A stretch of 64,000 nt of DNA from an uncultured Ardenticatenaceae bacterium. Its GTDB lineage: Bacteria; Chloroflexota; Anaerolineae; Promineifilales; Promineifilaceae. Shown here piece by piece: positions 22,227 to 62,719 of the stretch; position 1 is the first letter of the stretch; the number at the start of each line of letters is the position of its first letter. The stretch is taken from the NCBI GenBank assembly GCA_964539885.1, contig CAZIKT010000001.1, positions 143,292-207,291 on the forward strand, in the 5' to 3' direction. The position numbers and the translations under genes are program-made. The notes below the pieces were generated by a model. The model searched no databases and was not told the origin of the DNA. It worked only from the letters and a program-made list of their open reading frames with translations.

Positions 22227-22382
22227 GCTAGCATAGCAATCTTGAGCCTGCCAGGATGGACATACGCGCCCAGCGTAAGTAGTTCGCAGATCGGTCAAAG
22301 GATTGACCAAGCGGGTTAAGGAACCGTGCGTTGCGCCGGTCTCCCAGGTTTCCAAGCTAGGCAAAAAAAGGGGCACGATATT

Positions 22383-23666
22383 ATGAAAGCTCGGTTTCGT
22401 CTTCCTGCAATCTTGCTTATGCTGTTGGTTGCCGCCTTGATAGGGGGATGCAGAGAGCCTGCGCCGGATAGTGGGCCGGTCGGACCTGCGGGGCCGCCCG
22501 GACCGATGGGGCCGGTTGGTCCCGCCGGAGAAAACGCGTCGGCCAGCCAGCAGTACGTCGGCTCCGAAAGCTGCGGCTCTTGCCACGAGGACCAATACGC
22601 TACCTTTGTCCTGTCCGGCCATCCCTACCAGCTGACCAAGATTGAAAACGGAGAGCCACCGGTATTCCCTTATGATGAGATAACCGACGGCATCCCCTCT
22701 CCGCCGGACGGCTATGAGTGGGCCGATGTCTCCTACGTCGTGGGCGGTTATGGTTGGAAGGCGCAGTTCCTGGACCTGGACGGCTACATCATTGCGGGAG
22801 ATGAGGAGACTGCCACCCAATACAACTTAGCCAATGAAGATCTGGAGTTGCCGGCTGGCTGGGTCCCCTATCATTCCGGCGAGCAACTATCCTACGACTG
22901 CGGCACCTGCCATACGACCGGCTATCAGCCGGAAGGTCATCAAGATGCCTTGGAGGGAATTGTGGGCGTCTGGGCCTACCCCGGCGTCCAGTGTGAGGCG
23001 TGCCACGGGCCGGGCAGCCTGCATGCCGCCGATCCCTATGGAGTCCGCATGGTCCTCGATCGCTCCTCACAGATGTGCGGCGATTGCCACATGCGCGACA
23101 ACCCGGCGCTGATCGACGCCGGCGACGGCCTTGAGCAGAATTATCAGCAATATGACGACCTGTACAACTCCCGCCATTTCGCCATTAGCTGCGTGACTTG
23201 CCACGATCCGCATGCCGGCGTGCGCTTCACCGACCCGGAGGCAACGAGCGCACAGGGTATTCGGCAATCATGTGAGAATTGCCATTGGGCGCAGGTCATA
23301 CAGAAGAATGAGCGCCGGCACTTCAACCTGACCTGCACCACATGCCACATGCCGGCCATGGCCGTCTCCGCGCAATCCATTGCGGAGGAATTCAGCGGCG
23401 ATATTCACTCCCATCAATTCGCCATCAACACGGACCCGAACGCGCCGCAGTTCAGTGAAGACGGCAGTCAGGTAATGCCGTACATCACGCTGCAATATGC
23501 CTGCCAGCAGTGCCATAACGGTTCCTTTTTCAGTGAGCAGGACCTTGTGACGCTGTCGGAGATGGCCCGTGACTATCACGAGCCGGCGACCGCCACGCCT
23601 ACGCCGGAACCGACGTCGACAGTCGAATCAGGCGAGGAGACGCCCACCCCCACGCCGACTCCGTAG
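22383..23666 (+). CDS. octaheme c-type cytochrome lipoprotein with an N-terminal collagen-like stalk
   Basis: Lipobox LIGGC. Eight CXXCH sites (CGSCH, CGTCH, CEACH, CGDCH, CVTCH, CENCH, CTTCH, CQQCH). First site resembles the cytochrome c554-type context (C..CH...Y......GH). Pro/Thr-rich C-terminal tail. Confidence 0.9.
   Translation: MKARFRLPAILLMLLVAALIGGCREPAPDSGPVGPAGPPGPMGPVGPAGENASASQQYVGSESCGSCHEDQYATFVLSGHPYQLTKIENGEPPVFPYDEITDGIPSPPDGYEWADVSYVVGGYGWKAQFLDLDGYIIAGDEETATQYNLANEDLELPAGWVPYHSGEQLSYDCGTCHTTGYQPEGHQDALEGIVGVWAYPGVQCEACHGPGSLHAADPYGVRMVLDRSSQMCGDCHMRDNPALIDAGDGLEQNYQQYDDLYNSRHFAISCVTCHDPHAGVRFTDPEATSAQGIRQSCENCHWAQVIQKNERRHFNLTCTTCHMPAMAVSAQSIAEEFSGDIHSHQFAINTDPNAPQFSEDGSQVMPYITLQYACQQCHNGSFFSEQDLVTLSEMARDYHEPATATPTPEPTSTVESGEETPTPTPTP
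22473..22535 (+). repeat. collagen-like Gly-X-Y repeat (7 triplets) within the octaheme cytochrome
   Basis: GPV GPA GPP GPM GPV GPA GEN, starting 7 residues after the lipobox Cys. Confidence 0.85.
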
Positions 23667-23700
23667 CGGAGCCGCAATCAAGTGACTCGGAGGTAATCCT

Positions 23701-25425
23701 ATGCGCAGGCTCTTCAGGGGTATCAAGCATTTCTTTCTTCCTCCACCAGGGAGTTCAGTCTGGCTGCGCATCCTGCCGTTTGTCGTCCTTGGTGTACTGA
23801 CAGTATTTGTGCTCAGCGGCTCGTCTTACGCCTGGACGTACACCAACTCGCCTGAGTTTTGCGGGAGCGCCTGCCACACGATGCCGCCCAACTACAGCAC
23901 CTATCTGCAATCGCCGCACGCCCGCGTGCAGTGCGTCGAATGTCATATTGGCCGGGATGTGATCACCACCCAATTCACCCGCAAGGCTGGCGACCTGCGA
24001 CATGTCTACTACACGATTACTCAAGACTTCGAGTATCCCATTCATTCCGAGGCGATGCGCCCGGCGCGGGACAGCTGTGAAAGATGTCATTTCCCCGAGA
24101 AGTTTTCCGACGATAGCCTGCGCCTTATCCGCGACTATGAGGGTGAAGACAACTCGCTGCTCACCACGCATCTACTGATGAAGACCGGCGGTGGCAGCCA
24201 ACGCGAGGGCCTTGGACGGGGCATACATTGGCACATCGAAAACGAGGTGTGGTATCTGGCCGAGGACCAGCTCGAGCAAGACATTCCTTATGTGCGCGTC
24301 GTAGACGAAGATGGGCAGATTTCGGAATTCTACGACATTGAATCCGGCATCACGCCGGATGATGTTGCCGGCAAAAGCCTGGAGCTGATGGACTGTATCA
24401 ATTGCCACAATCGCGTGACCCACACCGTGCCCAGCCCGGAAGACGCCATCGACCTGGCCTTCACGAGCGGGCAGTTGTCCAGAGACCTGCCGGCAATTTA
24501 CGATGCCGCGTATGAGCGGCTCAGTCAGATCTACACCGACAGTCAGGCCGCGGAAGAGAGCTTTGACTCCGTGGTGGATTTCTATGCCGAGGGGTATCCG
24601 GACATCTACAGTGAGCGCCAAGAAGAAATCGAGGCGATCCCGGCCGTGCTCGCGGACCTCTATAGTCAGATGGTGTTCGGCGACCAGCGCGTGGATTGGA
24701 AGACACATCCAGATAATCTGGGCCATGTCAACTCTCCCGGCTGTTTTCGCTGCCACGACGGCAAGCATCTGAGCGGCACAGGGGAGGCGATCCGCCTGGA
24801 GTGCAACCTGTGTCATTCAGTGCCGATCATCAGCGATGAAACCACCCTGGTCACTAACCTGGAACTTGTGCGCGGGCCGGAACCGCCGTCGCACATTCAT
24901 AGCAGTTGGATAGCGTTGCACGGTAAAGCCATTGATTCCTCATGCGCGGCCTGCCATGAACCGGCCGATCCGGAAATGGATTACACCGCGCTGGAAGGCA
25001 GACCTCCCAATGACGGCTCTTTTTGCGGCAATGCGGCCTGTCATGGCCCTGACTGGGAGTATGCCGGCTTCGACTCCCCGGCGCTGGAACCCTTCCTGGA
25101 GCGCCAGCTTTACATCCTGCAAAACACCAGCCCTTATCTGCTGGAAGGCGTGCCGCGCACATATGACAGTACTTTCAAAGCGCTGTTCGATGGACGTTGC
25201 GTCTTCTGCCATGGGACGGAGGAGACCAAGGCAGACCTGGACCTGAGTAGCTATGAGGGGATCATGCAAGGCGGCAAAAGCGGACCCGTCATCGTTCCTG
25301 GCGACCCGGAGAACAGCGCACTGATCGCAGTGCAATCGGCCTCCCAGGAGCACTTCGGGCAGGTATTGGATGACGAATTGGTCGCGCTGTGGGAATGGCT
25401 TTTGGCGGGGGCGCCTAGGGAATAA
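23701..25425 (+). CDS. NapC/NirT-like membrane-anchored multiheme cytochrome with a C-terminal Planctomycete-cytochrome-C-like domain
   Basis: N-terminal TM helix, then a NapC/NirT-like context (SPEFCGSACHTM...SPHARVQCVECH). Seven CXXCH sites plus CGSACH (CX3CH) and CGNAACH (CX4CH). C-terminal FDGRCVFCHG...LDLSSYEGIMQGG...VPGDPENSALI. RBS GGAGG lies before the ATG. Confidence 0.9.
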   Translation: MRRLFRGIKHFFLPPPGSSVWLRILPFVVLGVLTVFVLSGSSYAWTYTNSPEFCGSACHTMPPNYSTYLQSPHARVQCVECHIGRDVITTQFTRKAGDLRHVYYTITQDFEYPIHSEAMRPARDSCERCHFPEKFSDDSLRLIRDYEGEDNSLLTTHLLMKTGGGSQREGLGRGIHWHIENEVWYLAEDQLEQDIPYVRVVDEDGQISEFYDIESGITPDDVAGKSLELMDCINCHNRVTHTVPSPEDAIDLAFTSGQLSRDLPAIYDAAYERLSQIYTDSQAAEESFDSVVDFYAEGYPDIYSERQEEIEAIPAVLADLYSQMVFGDQRVDWKTHPDNLGHVNSPGCFRCHDGKHLSGTGEAIRLECNLCHSVPIISDETTLVTNLELVRGPEPPSHIHSSWIALHGKAIDSSCAACHEPADPEMDYTALEGRPPNDGSFCGNAACHGPDWEYAGFDSPALEPFLERQLYILQNTSPYLLEGVPRTYDSTFKALFDGRCVFCHGTEETKADLDLSSYEGIMQGGKSGPVIVPGDPENSALIAVQSASQEHFGQVLDDELVALWEWLLAGAPRE

Positions 25426-25544: not shown

Positions 25545-27797
25545 CTAAGGCGCCGGTTCTTCAGGGACGACAACCGGCGGCCGGCTCAGCGCTGATACAT
25601 CCCCACCCACACTGGCAATCGAATCGTAAAGGATCTGCATCACGTAATCGCCGTTGTGGGCGAACGCGCCGGGATCCTTCTGCGAATACTGATAGTTGTA
25701 GGCGGCGCGCAACAGGGCCGGCGTCCAGGATGCATACCCTTCGGTATCGGCGGCAGACGCTACACCATCGGCGTCCGCATCCACAAAGAAGTATGGATAG
25801 CGAGCCGGGTTGTACACAATCGGCGTGCCGATCGTGTTAGCCGCGTAACCTTGGAATGCGGCGTAGAGTAACTCGGCTAGTGTTGCCACCTCGCCGGCGA
25901 TGCCTTCGGTTACGTCGCCATCCCCATCGTAATCGACCGGAGTTTCATCATCATCGTCGAAGCGGATGTTGACCAGATCGTCCATGGTCTCGACGCCCTC
26001 GTGGCAGTCAGCGCATTCCTCGAACTGCACTTCCAGGGTATGGGTACCGTGACATTCCGTGCAGGCGTTGAAAGCGTTAACGTGTTCGTTTTGGCCGTTG
26101 TACTCCAGGCCCTCGAACTCATATGCCCCTTGAGCCTCAGTTCCAAAGAGCGTCGCGCCGGCGGCGAAGTAATGGATGTTGCGGAATCCCAGCGAATCCG
26201 ACACCTCGTCATCGCCCAGCTCACCTATCGCGCGATTCACACTCGCCGTGGACTCGCGCCCCTGGTGGCAATTCAAGCAGAGGTTGCTGCCGGGATCGTC
26301 CAGGGCTAGCTCGGCTCCACTTGGGAACGTGACTGACTCAACCTCATAGATGGTGAACTCGCCCACATCACTGTGGCAGGTGGAGCAGGCCAAGCCGTTG
26401 GAAGCCGGCTGGTTGATGGCCACGTTCTGCTCGATGTACAGCGGCAGGCCGGCAGCGCTGTGGCAGCGGCTGCAGCTCCCCGGCACGATCCCACCGTCTT
26501 CTTCGCCGTCCCAGTGCCGGAAGGCTTCTTCGGAGCCGGCGAAGTGCCCATGATCAATTCGCCGCAGGGCGGCCAAATCCACCGGGGCTGCGATCGATCC
26601 ATTCAGATCTTCGATCGAGTCGTACAGCAACTGGATGATGTATTTGCCGCCATGTGCGAAGCGACCAGGATCCTTCAGGGACACCTGGTAGTTGTATGCG
26701 GCGCGGGTCAGGCGCGGAGTCCAGGTGGCATAGCGCTCGGTCTCATCTTCGCCGATGGTACCATCGCCGTTGGCGTCGATGAAGAAGTAGGGATGGCTAT
26801 CGCCGTTGTAGCCAATGGGCGAGCCGGCTACCTCGTTTGCATATGCTTGCACTGAGGTGAGCAGAATGTCCCGCATGCCGTCAATCTCGAATGCAATGCC
26901 TTCGTCCATGTCGCCGTCGCCGTCGTAGTCAACCAACGACCCCGGCATACGCACGTCCTGGAAATCCTCAACTGTTTCCACGTCAGTGTGGCATGCAGTG
27001 CACTCCTCAACCTGCACCTCCAGGGTGTGCGGGTCATGGCAAGAGTTGCACGTGTTGTACCCATCTACATGGTCGTAACGGGCATCATATGATTTCCCCG
27101 CGTATTCATAACCACCCTTCGCCAGCGTGCCGTACTGCGTCGCTGCCGCCGCGTAGTAATGGATATTGGAGAAACCGAGGTCTTCACTCACTGTGTCGGG
27201 TGCCTCCGCCAATCCCGCGTCCGCGATCTTCTGATCAACAGAAACGGTAGATTCGCGACCCTGGTGACACTCCATGCAGCGCGACTCATCACCCAATCCG
27301 GTGACTTCAAGCCCTGATGGGAAGACCACACTGTCCTTGGTAATCGTTACGTCATTGTGGCAGGCAGCGCACTCCACCGTGGTACCGATCGGCGCCGCCA
27401 CATCCACCACACCGGCTTCCGATCCATCGAGACCAAGGAAATCCTGGTATCCCGGCGTGCTGTGACACTTGGCGCAACTCGTCGGAATCTCTGCTGGATC
27501 CTCTTCGTTCCAGTGGACAAACGCCTCGGCGGTGGTGTCGTTGTGCGGAGACGATTCCCAGCGCTCGACGAAGACCATCTCGTCCGCCGCGCTGACTTCG
27601 GGCACCGGACATTCTTCACATACCGGCGCCTCAACTTCCGGGCACACAGCCTCTTCCACGTCCGGACATTCCGCCGCGACTTCCACCTCCACAATACGTG
27701 TTACTTCTACCGGCTCTTGCTGTTCGTCGCTACATGCCGCCAGAGCCAGGGCGACGAGGAGCAGTAGCGCCATGATAATCAGGCTTTTTCGTTGCAT
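25545..27797 (-). CDS. decaheme c-type cytochrome lipoprotein built from a tandemly duplicated pentaheme module
   Basis: ATG at 27797, lipobox LALAAC. Ten CXXCH sites (CAKCH, CAACH, CMECH, CNSCH, CTACH / CSRCH, CSTCH, CLNCH, CTECH, CADCH). The two halves align residue-for-residue over about 310 aa. Confidence 0.9.
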   Translation of the reverse strand: MQRKSLIIMALLLLVALALAACSDEQQEPVEVTRIVEVEVAAECPDVEEAVCPEVEAPVCEECPVPEVSAADEMVFVERWESSPHNDTTAEAFVHWNEEDPAEIPTSCAKCHSTPGYQDFLGLDGSEAGVVDVAAPIGTTVECAACHNDVTITKDSVVFPSGLEVTGLGDESRCMECHQGRESTVSVDQKIADAGLAEAPDTVSEDLGFSNIHYYAAAATQYGTLAKGGYEYAGKSYDARYDHVDGYNTCNSCHDPHTLEVQVEECTACHTDVETVEDFQDVRMPGSLVDYDGDGDMDEGIAFEIDGMRDILLTSVQAYANEVAGSPIGYNGDSHPYFFIDANGDGTIGEDETERYATWTPRLTRAAYNYQVSLKDPGRFAHGGKYIIQLLYDSIEDLNGSIAAPVDLAALRRIDHGHFAGSEEAFRHWDGEEDGGIVPGSCSRCHSAAGLPLYIEQNVAINQPASNGLACSTCHSDVGEFTIYEVESVTFPSGAELALDDPGSNLCLNCHQGRESTASVNRAIGELGDDEVSDSLGFRNIHYFAAGATLFGTEAQGAYEFEGLEYNGQNEHVNAFNACTECHGTHTLEVQFEECADCHEGVETMDDLVNIRFDDDDETPVDYDGDGDVTEGIAGEVATLAELLYAAFQGYAANTIGTPIVYNPARYPYFFVDADADGVASAADTEGYASWTPALLRAAYNYQYSQKDPGAFAHNGDYVMQILYDSIASVGGDVSALSRPPVVVPEEPAP

Positions 27798-27923
27798 AGT
27801 TCTGCGCCCCTTTATTATCATTCACTCCCGGGTCCGGAGGGCATGCGCACAGGGCAGGTGCTCCTGACAGACCCTTTTCCTGTACAAGGCCGGCTGACCA
27901 ATGACCGGCGTGACGACCATCTC

Positions 27924-28769
27924 TTATGGCGCCGGCGTAACGGTTGGCACCACAGTAATGATGGCCGTCTCTTCAAAGGTAAATGCCCAGATTATTACGA
28001 CTAACAGCAGTGCGCCCACCACCAAGCTGAACGCAAAGAAGATTCGCTGCCGGTGTCGCAATACGGGCTTCTCAACGATTGGCCACGGTTCGCCTCCGGC
28101 ATCTAGCCGCTCCAGTTCCAATGCATGTTCCTCCTCCATTTGCTTACGCGACATCGTGCCTGTAAACATACTGCGATTAAAATGCTTGATGTGCACATTG
28201 TACATGTGCCAGACGATCAGGGCGGAGACAGCGAGGATGGCCTCCCAGCCATGCGCCGCCTTCGCCATGGGAATGAGTTCGCCGGGAAAGATAGAGGTAA
28301 AGGCAATGGGGTTCCACATGATGAAGCCGGTAATGGTCATCAGCGCGGTACCCCAAAGTACAGCCCAGTACTCGAATTTTTCGCCGAAGTTGAACTTCAG
28401 CATCTTGGGCGGCTCCTCCTGCAAACCCAAATTGTGTTTGACGGTGCCCGTTAAGTCGTCCAGGTCCTTGCGGGTCGGGAACATCGGCATGCGTTCCCGC
28501 CGGACAAAAAAGCGATATGCAGCCACCCCCAAACTATAGATTGAGCCGAGCACCAGCACGACCGCGGCATAATGGTGAATGATGCGCACATTGGTGATGC
28601 CCCCCAACCAACCGACAAGCGTCTGTGCCCACGGTTGAGTCTCCCACATTTGTGGCAGGCCCGTGATCGCCAGAGTTGTGAAGCTGAAGATCAGTATGAG
28701 ATGTTCGATCCGCGCTCCCAGGCGGAATCGGGGGTAATGGGTTGGTAACTCGCGGGTGGACTCACTCAT
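27924..28769 (-). CDS. b-type cytochrome membrane subunit (FdnI / Ni-Fe-hydrogenase cytochrome b-like)
   Basis: Four core TM helices with conserved His (IEHLIL, IIHHYA, AAHGWE, VWHMYN), plus an extra C-terminal TM helix. Lies immediately downstream of the 14-heme gene. Confidence 0.8.
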   Translation of the reverse strand: MSESTRELPTHYPRFRLGARIEHLILIFSFTTLAITGLPQMWETQPWAQTLVGWLGGITNVRIIHHYAAVVLVLGSIYSLGVAAYRFFVRRERMPMFPTRKDLDDLTGTVKHNLGLQEEPPKMLKFNFGEKFEYWAVLWGTALMTITGFIMWNPIAFTSIFPGELIPMAKAAHGWEAILAVSALIVWHMYNVHIKHFNRSMFTGTMSRKQMEEEHALELERLDAGGEPWPIVEKPVLRHRQRIFFAFSLVVGALLLVVIIWAFTFEETAIITVVPTVTPAP

Positions 28770-30565: not shown

Positions 30566-31858
30566 CTAGGGGGTCGGAGTTCCCTCGGTCGGCGCTCCTT
30601 CTTCGATCACTTCTTCAGCCGACGCCTCAACCGGAGGATTATGATATCCTACCGCGGTTTCGATCAACTCCTCATCCGTCTTGTCTCTGCCCAAGCCATC
30701 CGGGTTGTGGCAGCTCCGGCAAGAAGAATTCAGCGCGAGGCGTGGATGGGCCACTGTGCCGTCTTCGTTGAACTGCTCGATCTGGAGCGGGTCAATGGAC
30801 ACTTGATGCGTGCGCATATCGCCTGTGAACTTGGCCGGATCGCCGGCAGCAACCTGGATTATCCTGGGCATGTGGCAGGAAACACAATTCACGTCTATTC
30901 GAGCGTGCACTTCGTTATTCTGGTTCTGCACCTGCGCGAAATGACAGTTCTCGCAATTGACAATTGTGGTAGGCAGTTCAGCTTCACGAAGCTGGACTAC
31001 CCCGGTATGCGGGTCATGACAGACCACACAGTCGAGTATCACATGCTTGCCTTCAAAGAGGTCCTGATACTGGTCGTGATGCTGGATGAAGCCGTCGCTG
31101 CCGGCGACTTCGTCAACCGTTCCCCGGGCGTGACAGGCGGCGCAAGCTGCACTGTCCCGGTCCACGACTGGACGGAAGGAAAGCGGGTGATTGGCATGCA
31201 GGCTGCCGGGGCCGTGACATTCCTCACAACCGATGCCCGCTTCCGCCCAGGTGCCGGTTATGCCCGGCAGACCATCCTGGTTGCCGGATGAGGAGTAGCC
31301 GGTCGTGTGGCAGCGGCCGCAATCGTATGAAATCTCCTCTCCCGGGTGATAGGCTACCCATTCGTCGCGAGTCTCCAACTCGTCATTAGGAAGATTGTAC
31401 TGCGTGGTGGCTTCGGCGCTGTCTCCGGTAATGATCAAGCCGTCCAGACCGATAAAGCGAGCCTTCCAGTTATAGCCGCCTATTACAAACGCTATGTCTT
31501 CCCAGGTGTATCCCTCCGGCGGGTCAGGCACTCGACTGAATGGATAGGTCGGCTCCTCTCCATCAACGACCGCGTTGAGCTGGAAATTGTGCCCACTCAG
31601 AGCGTAGATATCAAACAATTCCTGGTGGCACTCTGCGCAGGCTTCGCTTCCAATGTATTGCGCCGGCTCGAAACTCACCCCGTCCGCTCCTGCCGGCCCG
31701 GACGCGCCGGGCGCTCCATCTCTGCCGGTGGGTCCAGGAAGGCCCTGTGGTCCCTGCGGACCTGGAGGTCCTTGCGGTCCTTCCTGCGGGGCGCAGGCGG
31801 TTATTAACAGGCCTACAGCGATGAAGATGATCCAACTAGAGAGATGAATGCGCCTCAT
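30566..31858 (-). CDS. octaheme c-type cytochrome lipoprotein with an N-terminal collagen-like stalk (paralog of 22383..23666)
   Basis: Lipobox LITAC. Eight CXXCH sites (CAECH, CGRCH, CEECH, CAACH, CVVCH, CENCH, CVSCH, CRSCH). Roughly 50% identity by eye to the other octaheme protein. RBS GGGAGGGAA. Confidence 0.9.
31673..31780 (-). repeat. collagen-like Gly-X-Y repeat (12 triplets) within the octaheme cytochrome
   Basis: [36 protein letters not shown], starting 4 residues after the lipobox Cys. Confidence 0.9.
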
Positions 31859-61504: not shown

Positions 61505-62719
61505 TTAGTGGGAAGCAGGCTGCGGCTGCCGGCGGTGACGAACGATAAGCCAGCCGGCCATCAGCAGCGCCACGACGATAGACACCAACGTCGCCACCGG
61601 CAGGCCAATATCCACCCCCAGTAATTGCACTGTCCGGCTGTCCAGCCGCACCAGTTCCAACAATGTGCGCCCAACGGCGTACAGGATCAGGTATAGGGCG
61701 AAGAGGTCGCCCGGCATAATCCGGTCGTCGTCCCGCCGGGCCAGGTACAGAAGAAGCAGGAAGGCAAGCAGGCTCCAGAGAGACTCATAAAGAAAAGCCG
61801 GGTGAAAGCGCGAGACGTCAGCGAACTCAGGTAGGCGATAAGACGGGTCAATCGTGACGGCCCACGGCAAATTGGACGGCCCGCCGTAAAGCTCCTGATT
61901 GAAGAAGTTCGCCCAGCGACCAATCGCTTGGCCCAGCGCCACGCCGACCGCGGCAATGTCTGCCCAGGCCAGCAACGGGATACGCGCCCTTCTTGTGTAA
62001 ATGAAAAGCCCTATGAGCCCGCCGGCCAACCCGCCGTAGATTCCCAGCCCTCCGCGGCGGAAGTTGATCAGTTCCAGCGGGTTGCGGAAGTAATCCAGCG
62101 GCGTATTGATTCCGATTTCGGCCATGCTGGGCGACGGGGTGAGCACATGATAAAGGCGCGCGCCAATAATGGCGAAGATCAAGCACCAGATGATCCCGCT
62201 CCAGACATGGCCGGGATCCCAGATTCGCCAGGGGGCGTCGGTCAGCCATTCCGGCGCGACTCCAGGCTGTTTCTGCAGCCGGCTGCGCACTTCGCGCTGA
62301 CCGTCCTTATTGAGACCAACGTAACCCGGATTATAACCCCATGGGAGCAAGAGTTGGCCCAGGGTCGTGATACGTCTCTTTTGCAGGGTCTTCAGTAACT
62401 CAGCGGGCAACTGCAGCCGTTCGAGGGAGCGTTGGCGAACATCATCCGGCACCGTGACGACGAACAGTCTCTCCCCACGTTCGCTCGCCAGCCGGCTGGT
62501 CACATACGCGCCATACGCGATCCCGCCGGTGATTATGATACCGTACCAGAAGACATCCAGGTTGAGGAAGGGGATGGTAAAGGCTACTCGGTCAGGGGTC
62601 AGGCCGGTGATCTGATGATAGATAAACAGGACCAGCCCGGTGATGACCAGTGCCAGGATAACATACCAGTATGGCTCAATCGTGCGCCGGCTCGGGCGCG
62701 CCTCCGCGTCCTCGCTCAT
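61505..62719 (-). CDS. lgt: prolipoprotein diacylglyceryl transferase with a roughly 90-aa insertion
   Basis: GGLGIYGGLAGGLIGLFIY, GQAIGRWANFFNQELYG and PAFLYESLW Lgt signatures. At 404 aa it is longer than the roughly 260-290 aa I recall as typical. Confidence 0.85.
   Translation of the reverse strand: MSEDAEARPSRRTIEPYWYVILALVITGLVLFIYHQITGLTPDRVAFTIPFLNLDVFWYGIIITGGIAYGAYVTSRLASERGERLFVVTVPDDVRQRSLERLQLPAELLKTLQKRRITTLGQLLLPWGYNPGYVGLNKDGQREVRSRLQKQPGVAPEWLTDAPWRIWDPGHVWSGIIWCLIFAIIGARLYHVLTPSPSMAEIGINTPLDYFRNPLELINFRRGGLGIYGGLAGGLIGLFIYTRRARIPLLAWADIAAVGVALGQAIGRWANFFNQELYGGPSNLPWAVTIDPSYRLPEFADVSRFHPAFLYESLWSLLAFLLLLYLARRDDDRIMPGDLFALYLILYAVGRTLLELVRLDSRTVQLLGVDIGLPVATLVSIVVALLMAGWLIVRHRRQPQPASH

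Follow-up and report, generated by a model that had tools for sequence, protein, structure and literature searches.

A tandem pentaheme cytochrome module with calcium-type loops, undescribed and widespread in Anaerolineae

A decaheme c-type cytochrome encoded in the genome of an uncultured Ardenticatenaceae bacterium is a lipoprotein made of a tandemly duplicated pentaheme module, and this module is a previously undescribed family that is large, conserved, and uncharacterised. We analyzed a stretch of 64,000 nucleotides (nt) from this bacterium (GenBank assembly GCA_964539885.1, contig CAZIKT010000001.1, positions 143,292 to 207,291 of the forward strand), hereafter the window; the decaheme gene lies on its minus strand, and coordinates are those of the window (Table 1). 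Each module of the decaheme carries two acidic, calcium-type loops in addition to five heme motifs. We think it rather probable that, in a cell lacking an outer membrane, the protein acts at the surface as an electron conduit or terminal reductase and has structural calcium sites.

The duplicated module and its family

As the original prediction had proposed from the open reading frame, the protein consists of two copies of one pentaheme unit. When amino acids (aa) 81–405 were compared with aa 406–758 by BLASTP, the halves aligned colinearly (aa 93–403 against aa 426–735; the halves as first delimited correspond to aa 88–405 and 424–735), with 152 of 321 positions identical (47%), 63% positives, and E=1e-98. 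The likeness therefore far exceeds what shared heme-motif spacing could yield, and the identity of the self-alignment is far above the background of CXXCH spacing. Ten CXXCH sites are present, five in each half (aa 116, 151, 182, 258, and 274, then aa 450, 479, 515, 587, and 603), and the decaheme sequence has no CXXCK or CX3-4CH variants. The motifs that the prediction quoted as shared were all found, with small corrections: NIHY is preceded by S in half A and by R in half B, where the prediction had F or R, and HPYFF occurs in half A only, half B having YPYFF.

Structural models, which contain no hemes, were predicted for the whole protein and for a single module. The single-module model, built with 120 module sequences, had a predicted local distance difference test score (pLDDT) of 93.3 and a predicted template modeling score (pTM) of 0.91; in it, a heme region rich in loops leads into three long helices. 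The AlphaFold model of the whole protein scored 80.9 and 0.64, respectively, with a floppy linker between the modules (pLDDT <50 for aa 428–442).

The module occurs in a large set of proteins that differ in the number of copies. A search with the whole protein returned over 4,751 clusters (90% identity), most of them 730–760 aa long and named "hypothetical" or "cytochrome c3 family", and a search with a single module against 1.84 billion representatives found 1,264 proteins at E≤0.001 (representatives at 50% identity), 314 of them at E≤1e-30. A hidden Markov model (HMM) of the module, applied to the fetched proteins, identified 157 with two full modules, 14 with three, and 176 with one, many of the last being fragments. 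Monomeric pentaheme homologs, for which the original prediction had proposed a search, do exist, as single-module proteins of ~355–424 aa encoded on complete and long contigs. Sixteen examples in this size range have an N-terminal signal or anchor, five CXXCH motifs, and the C-terminal "...RP" typical of the family, and more were present as intact open frames in whole genomes, including the single-contig genome G076. Many apparent monomers of 350–570 aa from the first module search proved to be two-module genes on short contigs, broken by frameshifts or truncation, and were set aside.

A tree of 108 modules (FastTree, with local Shimodaira–Hasegawa-like support only) suggests how these architectures arose. 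A branch with 96% support separates all 42 first modules and 15 of 16 monomers from all second and third modules and one monomer; since first and second modules are split by a well-supported branch, the duplication is ancient and a conserved trait of the family. Third modules are sister to second modules of their own lineage (for example, in P0006, P0004/P0007, and P0010/P0012), and triplication thus arose repeatedly, by copying of a B-type module. The three-module relatives have 15 hemes and six acidic loops. In some of them (P0013, P0113, P0010, and P0004), the acidic stalk found in the decaheme is swapped for three Big_2 Ig-like domains, for long VEVTREV repeats, or, in one protein, for an acidic segment extremely rich in Cys. 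What lies between the anchor and the heme domain is thus freely exchangeable in the family.

The module family was present in at least 590 species genomes, mostly from families of Anaerolineae, with some from Acidimicrobiia. Named host groups include Promineifilaceae, Ardenticatenaceae, Caldilineaceae, and a few Acidimicrobiia. Among 401 genomes sampled across the phylum, 27 carried the family, all from the class of the window's own genome, and it was not found in the other classes. In a denser sample of that class, 128 of 401 genomes and 76 of 216 genera had the family, as did 9 of 14 genomes from the window's own family. Some genomes encode two or three two-module paralogs in a row (loci L054, 3374–10016; L058, 3204–10016; L041, 5626–10139). 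Our literature search found no description of this pentaheme-module family.

Acidic loops, heme ligands, and relation to known cytochromes

The original prediction had noted one DYDGDGD loop in each half, and these loops are present at aa 298 and 630. Each half holds another acidic loop that the prediction had overlooked, FFIDANGDGTIGEDE (aa 349) and FFVDADADGVASAAD (aa 681). Loop 1 is among the most conserved non-heme features of the 532 modules that we compared, with frequencies (module A numbering) of 0.98 for D298, 0.92 for D300, 0.96 for G301, 0.90 for D302, 0.93 for G303, 0.73 for D304, 0.94 for E307, and 0.97 for E312. Loop 2 follows ~50 residues past loop 1, between the first and second long helices, and is found in ~88% of modules; its general form is D-x-N/D-x-N/D-G-x-x-D-x-x-E. 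Its family frequencies are 0.91 for D at position 1, 0.86 for N/D at position 3, 0.84 for N/D at position 5, 0.85 for G at position 6, ~0.7 for D/S/N at position 9, and 0.83 for E/D at position 12. In module A, DANGDGTIGEDE fits the EF-hand pattern D-x-[DNS]-x-[DNS]-G-x-[ILV]-x-x-x-[DE], and in the AlphaFold model it is flanked by strands at aa 346–348 and about aa 362.

To judge from these patterns, the acidic loops most likely hold structural Ca2+. The resemblance to calcium-binding loops proposed in the original prediction is a reasonable reading of the sequence, given the conservation of the loops and sub-threshold Pfam matches, namely FG-GAP_3 at loop 1 and EF-hand_5 at loop 2 (10.8 bits, and 17.5 bits with E=0.0028 in the monomer P0337, against a cut-off of 25.9). 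Its comparison with dockerin and thrombospondin type-3 repeats did not hold: neither model (PF00404, PF02412) matched at E≤10, and the loops stand ~50 residues apart across a long helix. Loop 2 has the canonical D-x-N-x-D-G-x-I-x-x-x-E form, and loop 1 has the D-x-D-G-D-G-D form of FG-GAP repeats, as in integrin. Unlike an EF-hand, however, the predicted structure has no helix-loop-helix; loop 2 lies in a beta-hairpin, and loop 1 merely precedes a helix. Calcium sites are not foreign to multiheme cytochromes, and NrfA has them, although of another loop type. We did not find two calcium-type loops described for multiheme cytochromes in our literature search. They offer a simple, testable structural feature of the family.

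Conserved histidines provide candidate ligands for the hemes. Outside the heme motifs, five His of the module reach at least 98% conservation (H93, H221, H251, H265, and H390), and a sixth, H103, reaches 87%. The first heme motif has His in 100% of modules, the N-x-H-Y motif is 93–100% conserved, and the Arg after heme 3 (CHQGR) is 95% conserved. The five extra His would be exactly enough for bis-His ligation of all five hemes. Ten aligned NrfA sequences, however, likewise have five invariant non-motif His, which are four ligands plus the catalytic His264. For this reason, the number of His cannot decide between a closed and an open heme 1.

The module maps to no well-characterized catalytic family, with no significant match to a curated family or a solved structure. 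Pfam returned only generic multiheme models, NCBIfam had no model near its cut-off, and the whole protein, searched by sequence against the PDB, had no meaningful match (best E 0.057). A profile of 18 module sequences gave comparably weak PDB matches to NrfA (E=3e-6), nine-heme cytochrome c3, a chain of 6R2Q, and OcwA (E=5e-5). In Foldseek searches of the PDB, the only module-length matches were OcwA (E=0.05, probability 0.99, template modeling [TM] score 0.33), OmhA, two Geobacter NrfA, octaheme nitrite reductase, and MccA. All are members of the NrfA superfamily, matched at TM scores of 0.2–0.38 and E≥0.05, and a fold search with the high-confidence single-module model brought no gain over the whole-protein search. 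We treat the module as a likely, though putative, remote member of the NrfA/OcwA superfamily.

NrfA shares with the module five colinear hemes of similar spacing, followed by long C-terminal helices. In hhalign, a profile of 10 NrfA sequences (Escherichia coli and nine class members) aligned with the module over 273 columns at 95% probability. All five heme motifs matched in order, His94, His275, and His393 of NrfA fell opposite module His, and both acidic loops were insertions absent from NrfA; E. coli NrfA alone had given 42% over 45 columns in an earlier comparison. We rejected the profile match as evidence of kinship, since unrelated multiheme families scored the same or higher: the neighboring 14-heme and 8-heme cytochromes reached 96.8% and 97.1% and NrfB reached 86.5%, all with five motifs aligned, and of the controls only reversed NrfA failed, at 0.4%. 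NrfA has CXXCK at its heme 1, whereas the module has CXXCH. The catalytic residues Arg106, Tyr216, and His264 of NrfA and its calcium ligands Glu215 and Gln263 (E. coli numbering) are matched by F, R, Q, G, and E of the module, in an alignment that is no better than the controls. NrfA itself functions as a dimer of pentaheme subunits and binds Ca2+. We also rejected the module as an NrfA enzyme, given the lack of CXXCK, PF02335 scores (9.8 and 6.0 bits) that fall far short of the cut-off of 24.1, and the absence of an NrfA model among NCBIfam matches. No NrfA (PF02335) was found in the host genome, which is 97.5% complete. In several other genomes (e.g., G322, G516, G006, and G043) genuine NrfA co-occurs with the module family, which is therefore not a replacement for it.

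Two other groups of surface cytochromes were compared with the decaheme. OcwA of Thermincola potens (6I5B) and OmhA of Carboxydothermus ferrireducens (6QVM) are surface multiheme c-type cytochromes of cells without an outer membrane, in which a heme domain precedes a short three-helix bundle and all sites are CXXCH. They serve as terminal reductases (PMC6703420), the role proposed here for the decaheme. In contrast to the decaheme, these proteins have nine and eleven hemes and combine a c554-like with an NrfA-like module instead of repeating one pentaheme module; they are ~14% identical to the module at TM scores of at most 0.38, so that homology is not established. The papers that we consulted on them describe neither DxDxDG loops nor a design of lipobox plus acidic stalk, and the OmhA and evolution papers make no mention of calcium. 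MtrC, OmcA, and MtrF of Shewanella are lipid-anchored surface decahemes with two pentaheme domains from internal duplication, and act as terminal reductases for minerals and shuttles. However, their pentaheme domains II and IV alternate with beta-barrel domains I and III, and they sit on an outer-membrane porin complex. Membership of this group was rejected, as the models contain no beta-barrel domains and NCBIfam gave no OmcA/MtrC match. The Pfam model PF22113 (domains II/IV) gave a borderline, partial match and scored 32.6 bits on the whole protein (profile positions 71–166 only) and 27.4 and 20.0 bits on the modules, with a cut-off of 30.

Genomic partners and the proposed electron route

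Gene order around the decaheme is conserved and places it with other membrane and multiheme cytochromes. We compared the best 80 of at least 590 genome loci and analyzed 79 two-module loci from species-representative genomes. The operon order of octaheme lipoprotein, 14-heme cytochrome, cytochrome b, and decaheme (last) was conserved in ~50 of the 79. Counted singly, the octaheme was present at 50 loci, the 14-heme cytochrome at 57, and the cytochrome b at 56, and many of the remaining loci are cut by contig ends. An NrfH-like gene was nearby in 26. The partner genes resemble the Cbc modules of Geobacter (CbcL, CbcBA), which also join a b-type membrane cytochrome to a multiheme c-type cytochrome with a membrane helix. 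A pair of the Cbc type is a quinol-oxidizing entry point that feeds extracytoplasmic cytochromes. This likeness concerns the partner genes and not the decaheme, and differs in the 14 hemes and FdnI-type cytochrome b found here, for which no family model reached its cut-off.

The decaheme is predicted to be exposed on the cell surface. A search for Omp85/BamA found none in the 97.5%-complete host genome, while the same search found Omp85 in all seven diderm control genomes, and the host cell thus appears to lack an outer membrane. A lipoprotein outside the cytoplasmic membrane would therefore be at the cell surface. The protein has the features of a bacterial lipoprotein: a hydrophobic stretch at aa 8–34 includes the lipobox L-A-A-C30, and lgt and lspA of the same genome exceed their model cut-offs in a profile search. 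A lipobox was also found in 114 of 131 two-module homologs.

Single-module relatives have a different partner. A gene of the NOX/ferric-reductase type (~430–475 aa) adjoins the single-module gene in 12 of 15 loci from several families (L094–L097, L099, L101–L103, and L105–L108), either co-directional with gaps of ~30–150 nt or divergent. In its product, FAD_binding_8 and NAD_binding_1 come after a transmembrane Ferric_reduct domain; among four neighbors searched with Pfam, NAD_binding_1 was detected in all and the other two domains in three each, and the remaining eight were recognized by BLASTP to the L095 protein. The L095 protein has two His pairs spaced 13 residues apart, as in NOX di-heme domains. 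NOX and ferric reductase proteins with two His pairs move electrons from cytoplasmic NAD(P)H across the membrane. The gene was found at none of the 79 two-module loci, and no Ferric_reduct domain was found in the window's genome (97.5% complete). Since the module pairs in two unrelated ways with a transmembrane b-heme device able to conduct electrons across the membrane, these partners are the strongest support for a role in electron export. The NOX-type protein and the single-module protein may together form a minimal device for export from NAD(P)H to the surface, and our literature search found no description of an electron route from a NOX-type flavoprotein to a pentaheme module. Monomers have short anchors, whereas decahemes have long, variable stalks, which fits a heme domain set at different heights above the membrane.

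From these partners we infer a route, a direction of flow, and a surface acceptor for the decaheme. The FdnI-like cytochrome b and the membrane-anchored 14-heme cytochrome would draw electrons from the quinol pool and pass them to the decaheme, perhaps also via the octaheme lipoprotein. An acidic stalk of ~55 residues would keep the decaheme off the membrane, where it could hand electrons to outside acceptors, such as Fe or Mn oxides, humic substances, shuttles, or partner cells. This role would be that of OcwA in the monoderm Thermincola. More tentatively, the family could represent an unrecognized, calcium-stabilized system of extracellular electron transfer that is widespread in Anaerolineae, a broader reading that we regard as possible but short of probable. 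It would exist in a respiratory form, in which a stalked decaheme or 15-heme protein is fed by the cytochrome b and 14-heme quinol dehydrogenase, and in a minimal form of two proteins, in which one tethered pentaheme module receives electrons of cytoplasmic NAD(P)H directly through a membrane-spanning NOX-type di-heme-b flavoprotein.

Several observations weigh against the role as a surface conduit or terminal reductase. Many hosts are filaments of activated sludge that are not known as metal reducers, and if heme 1 is five-coordinate, as in OcwA, the true acceptor could be a soluble substrate. The fold matches are below significance, with TM scores of at most 0.38, and the NrfA profile comparison, which is no better than the multiheme controls, does not support the superfamily assignment. 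Calcium binding is read from a sequence pattern, and EF-hand models stay below threshold. Finally, the predicted geometry between modules is uncertain (pTM of 0.64, compared with 0.91 for one module), which leaves an unbroken wire of ten hemes conjectural.

Each module could instead be an enzyme with a five-coordinate heme 1 that reduces a soluble substrate at the surface (nitrite, hydroxylamine, NO, a sulfur oxyanion, or peroxide), and the invariant His of NIHY would then be a non-bonded distal residue, as at heme 5 of OcwA. We consider this unlikely, although hhalign pairs heme 1 of the module with the CXXCK heme of NrfA and three of the four distal His of NrfA with module His, the conserved Arg after heme 3 falls at the position of NrfA Tyr216, N-x-H-Y is conserved, and OcwA has open hemes of the CXXCH type and slowly reduces nitrite (PMC6703420). 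The His count is neutral here, NrfA having exactly five invariant non-motif His as well. The decaheme lacks CXXCK, the catalytic residues and calcium ligands of NrfA are replaced in the alignment, PF02335 stays well below its cut-off, and several genomes encode both genuine NrfA and the family; the alignment with NrfA does not surpass the controls. For a surface conduit, we infer that heme 1 would have bis-His coordination.

Electrons might also flow inward, from Fe(II), reduced humics, a cathode, or a partner cell through the decaheme to the 14-heme cytochrome and cytochrome b and on to the quinone pool. Multiheme conduits can as a rule run in either direction, many of the hosts live in oxic/anoxic sludge as facultative aerobes, and current of both kinds, anodic and cathodic, is seen in Ardenticatena maritima, which belongs to the same phylum (PMC5808234). 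Against this stand the single-module relatives, which pair with an NAD(P)H-oxidizing NOX-type protein. The direction of electron flow in NOX proteins is outward. In addition, no Cyc2-type or cupredoxin iron-oxidation genes were found in the island, and reduction of quinone by Fe(II) is energetically unfavorable at neutral pH without a high-potential branch, which makes inward flow improbable. Another reading concerns the acidic loops, which could be docking or adhesion elements for a partner protein, a cell-wall polymer, or a mineral, like those of dockerin or thrombospondin, and not calcium sites. The loops are surface-type acidic insertions without counterpart in the NrfA alignment, in agreement with the analogy drawn in the original prediction. 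We find this reading very doubtful, given that no dockerin or thrombospondin type-3 model matched and that dockerin has paired 22-residue segments in place of loops separated by a long helix. The loops are also equally conserved in stalked decahemes and in monomers that hug the membrane, and an intrinsic structural role therefore fits better than docking.

In activated sludge, sediments, salt marshes, and electrode biofilms, Anaerolineae rank with the most abundant bacteria. The papers that we consulted on the class note the wealth of multiheme cytochromes in their genomes, and none of them names a pathway. The module family is a concrete and widespread candidate for electron transfer in this class, combining a conserved operon with an anchor, a stalk, and one to three modules. 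The pairing of monomers with NOX-type proteins suggests a very small electron-export device that could be transferred to laboratory strains for bioelectrochemistry, and the natural series of 5, 10, and 15 hemes is suited to studying the growth of heme wires by module duplication.

Layout of the decaheme and its locus

Table 1. Features of the decaheme gene and its neighbors in the window. CDS, coding sequence; ORF, open reading frame.
Feature	Position	Strand	Evidence
Decaheme lipoprotein CDS, 758 aa	25545..27821	-	ORF list, translation; ten CXXCH
Signal peptide with lipobox L-A-A-C (Cys30)	27732..27821	-	sequence
Acidic Val/Glu/Pro-rich stalk, aa 31–84, spacer from anchor to module A	27570..27731	-	predicted disordered
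Cys-rich segment ECPDVEEAVCPEVEAPVCEECPVPEV, C52, C60, C68, C71	27594..27671	-	Cys census
Pentaheme module A, aa 85–410, hemes C116, C151, C182, C258, C274, then three-helix region	26592..27569	-	self-alignment, module HMM, AlphaFold secondary structure
Acidic loop 1, module A, aa 298–312, DYDGDGDMDEGIAFE, just before first long helix (starts aa 309)	26886..26930	-	conservation, FG-GAP_3 sub-threshold
Acidic loop 2, module A, aa 349–360, DANGDGTIGEDE, EF-hand-type 12-residue loop in beta-hairpin	26742..26777	-	pattern, conservation, EF-hand_5 sub-threshold
Pentaheme module B, aa 418–745, hemes C450, C479, C515, C587, C603, then three-helix region	25587..26570	-	self-alignment, single-module model
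Acidic loop 1, module B, aa 630–644, DYDGDGDVTEGIAGE	25890..25934	-	sequence, conservation, model
Acidic loop 2, module B, aa 681–692, DADADGVASAAD, degenerate EF-hand-type copy	25746..25781	-	sequence, conservation, model
FdnI / Ni-Fe-hydrogenase-type membrane cytochrome b, 281 aa	27924..28769	-	PF01292 53.5 bits; TIGR01583 67 bits, below cut-off
14-heme cytochrome c, 558 aa, N-terminal signal, C-terminal membrane helix	28801..30477	-	14 CXXCH, C-terminal hydrophobic segment, Pfam/NCBIfam matches
Octaheme lipoprotein, first operon gene, 430 aa, collagen-like Gly-X-Y stalk	30566..31858	-	8 CXXCH, 12-triplet Gly-X-Y run
Convergent pair ending near decaheme 3' end: octaheme lipoprotein paralog (22326–23666) and NrfH/NapC-like membrane cytochrome with PSCyt1 (23701–25425)	22326..25425	+	

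The start of the decaheme gene has two candidates. Two in-frame ATGs lie 24 nt apart, at 27821 and 27797, both preceded by a purine-rich stretch, and the second would give a 750-aa protein. Because the closest homologs begin at the second ATG, the true protein may be the shorter one. The host genome contains two lgt-like genes above cut-off, one of them within the window (~61532–62203, minus strand).

The stalk is a variable part of the protein. In the whole-protein model its pLDDT is <50 (aa 29–81), and among homologs it consists of VEVTR repeats, Cys-Pro hinge-like segments, or Big_2 domains. The original prediction described an acidic Cys-rich linker with four Cys and an adjacent fifth; the segment ECPDVEEAVCPEVEAPVCEECPVPEV holds four, and the fifth Cys of the N-terminus is that of the lipobox, C30. 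Stalk segments of the CP..CP.CP type, with two or four Cys, occur in about a dozen of the 131 two-module homologs examined, while most others have Cys-free VEVTR(I/V)VEV repeats. The Cys-rich linker of the decaheme is a lineage-specific variant of a variable stalk. The even number of Cys and the hinge-like CPxCP spelling suggest disulfides in Cys-bearing stalks, within or between chains.

Neighboring genes show further features. The octaheme paralog of the convergent pair has eight canonical CXXCH motifs, and its NrfH/NapC-like neighbor has seven CXXCH, one CX3CH, and one CX4CH, with the PSCyt1 domain C-terminal. Both octahemes carry a collagen-like Gly-X-Y run between lipobox and heme domain, of 12 triplets in the operon copy and 7 in the paralog. 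Short C-terminal tails rich in Pro, Thr, and Val are found on four of the island's proteins, one of them the membrane cytochrome b (25545–25580, 27924–27950, 30566–30590, and 23640–23666), and may be a shared signal for sorting, glycosylation, or wall attachment.

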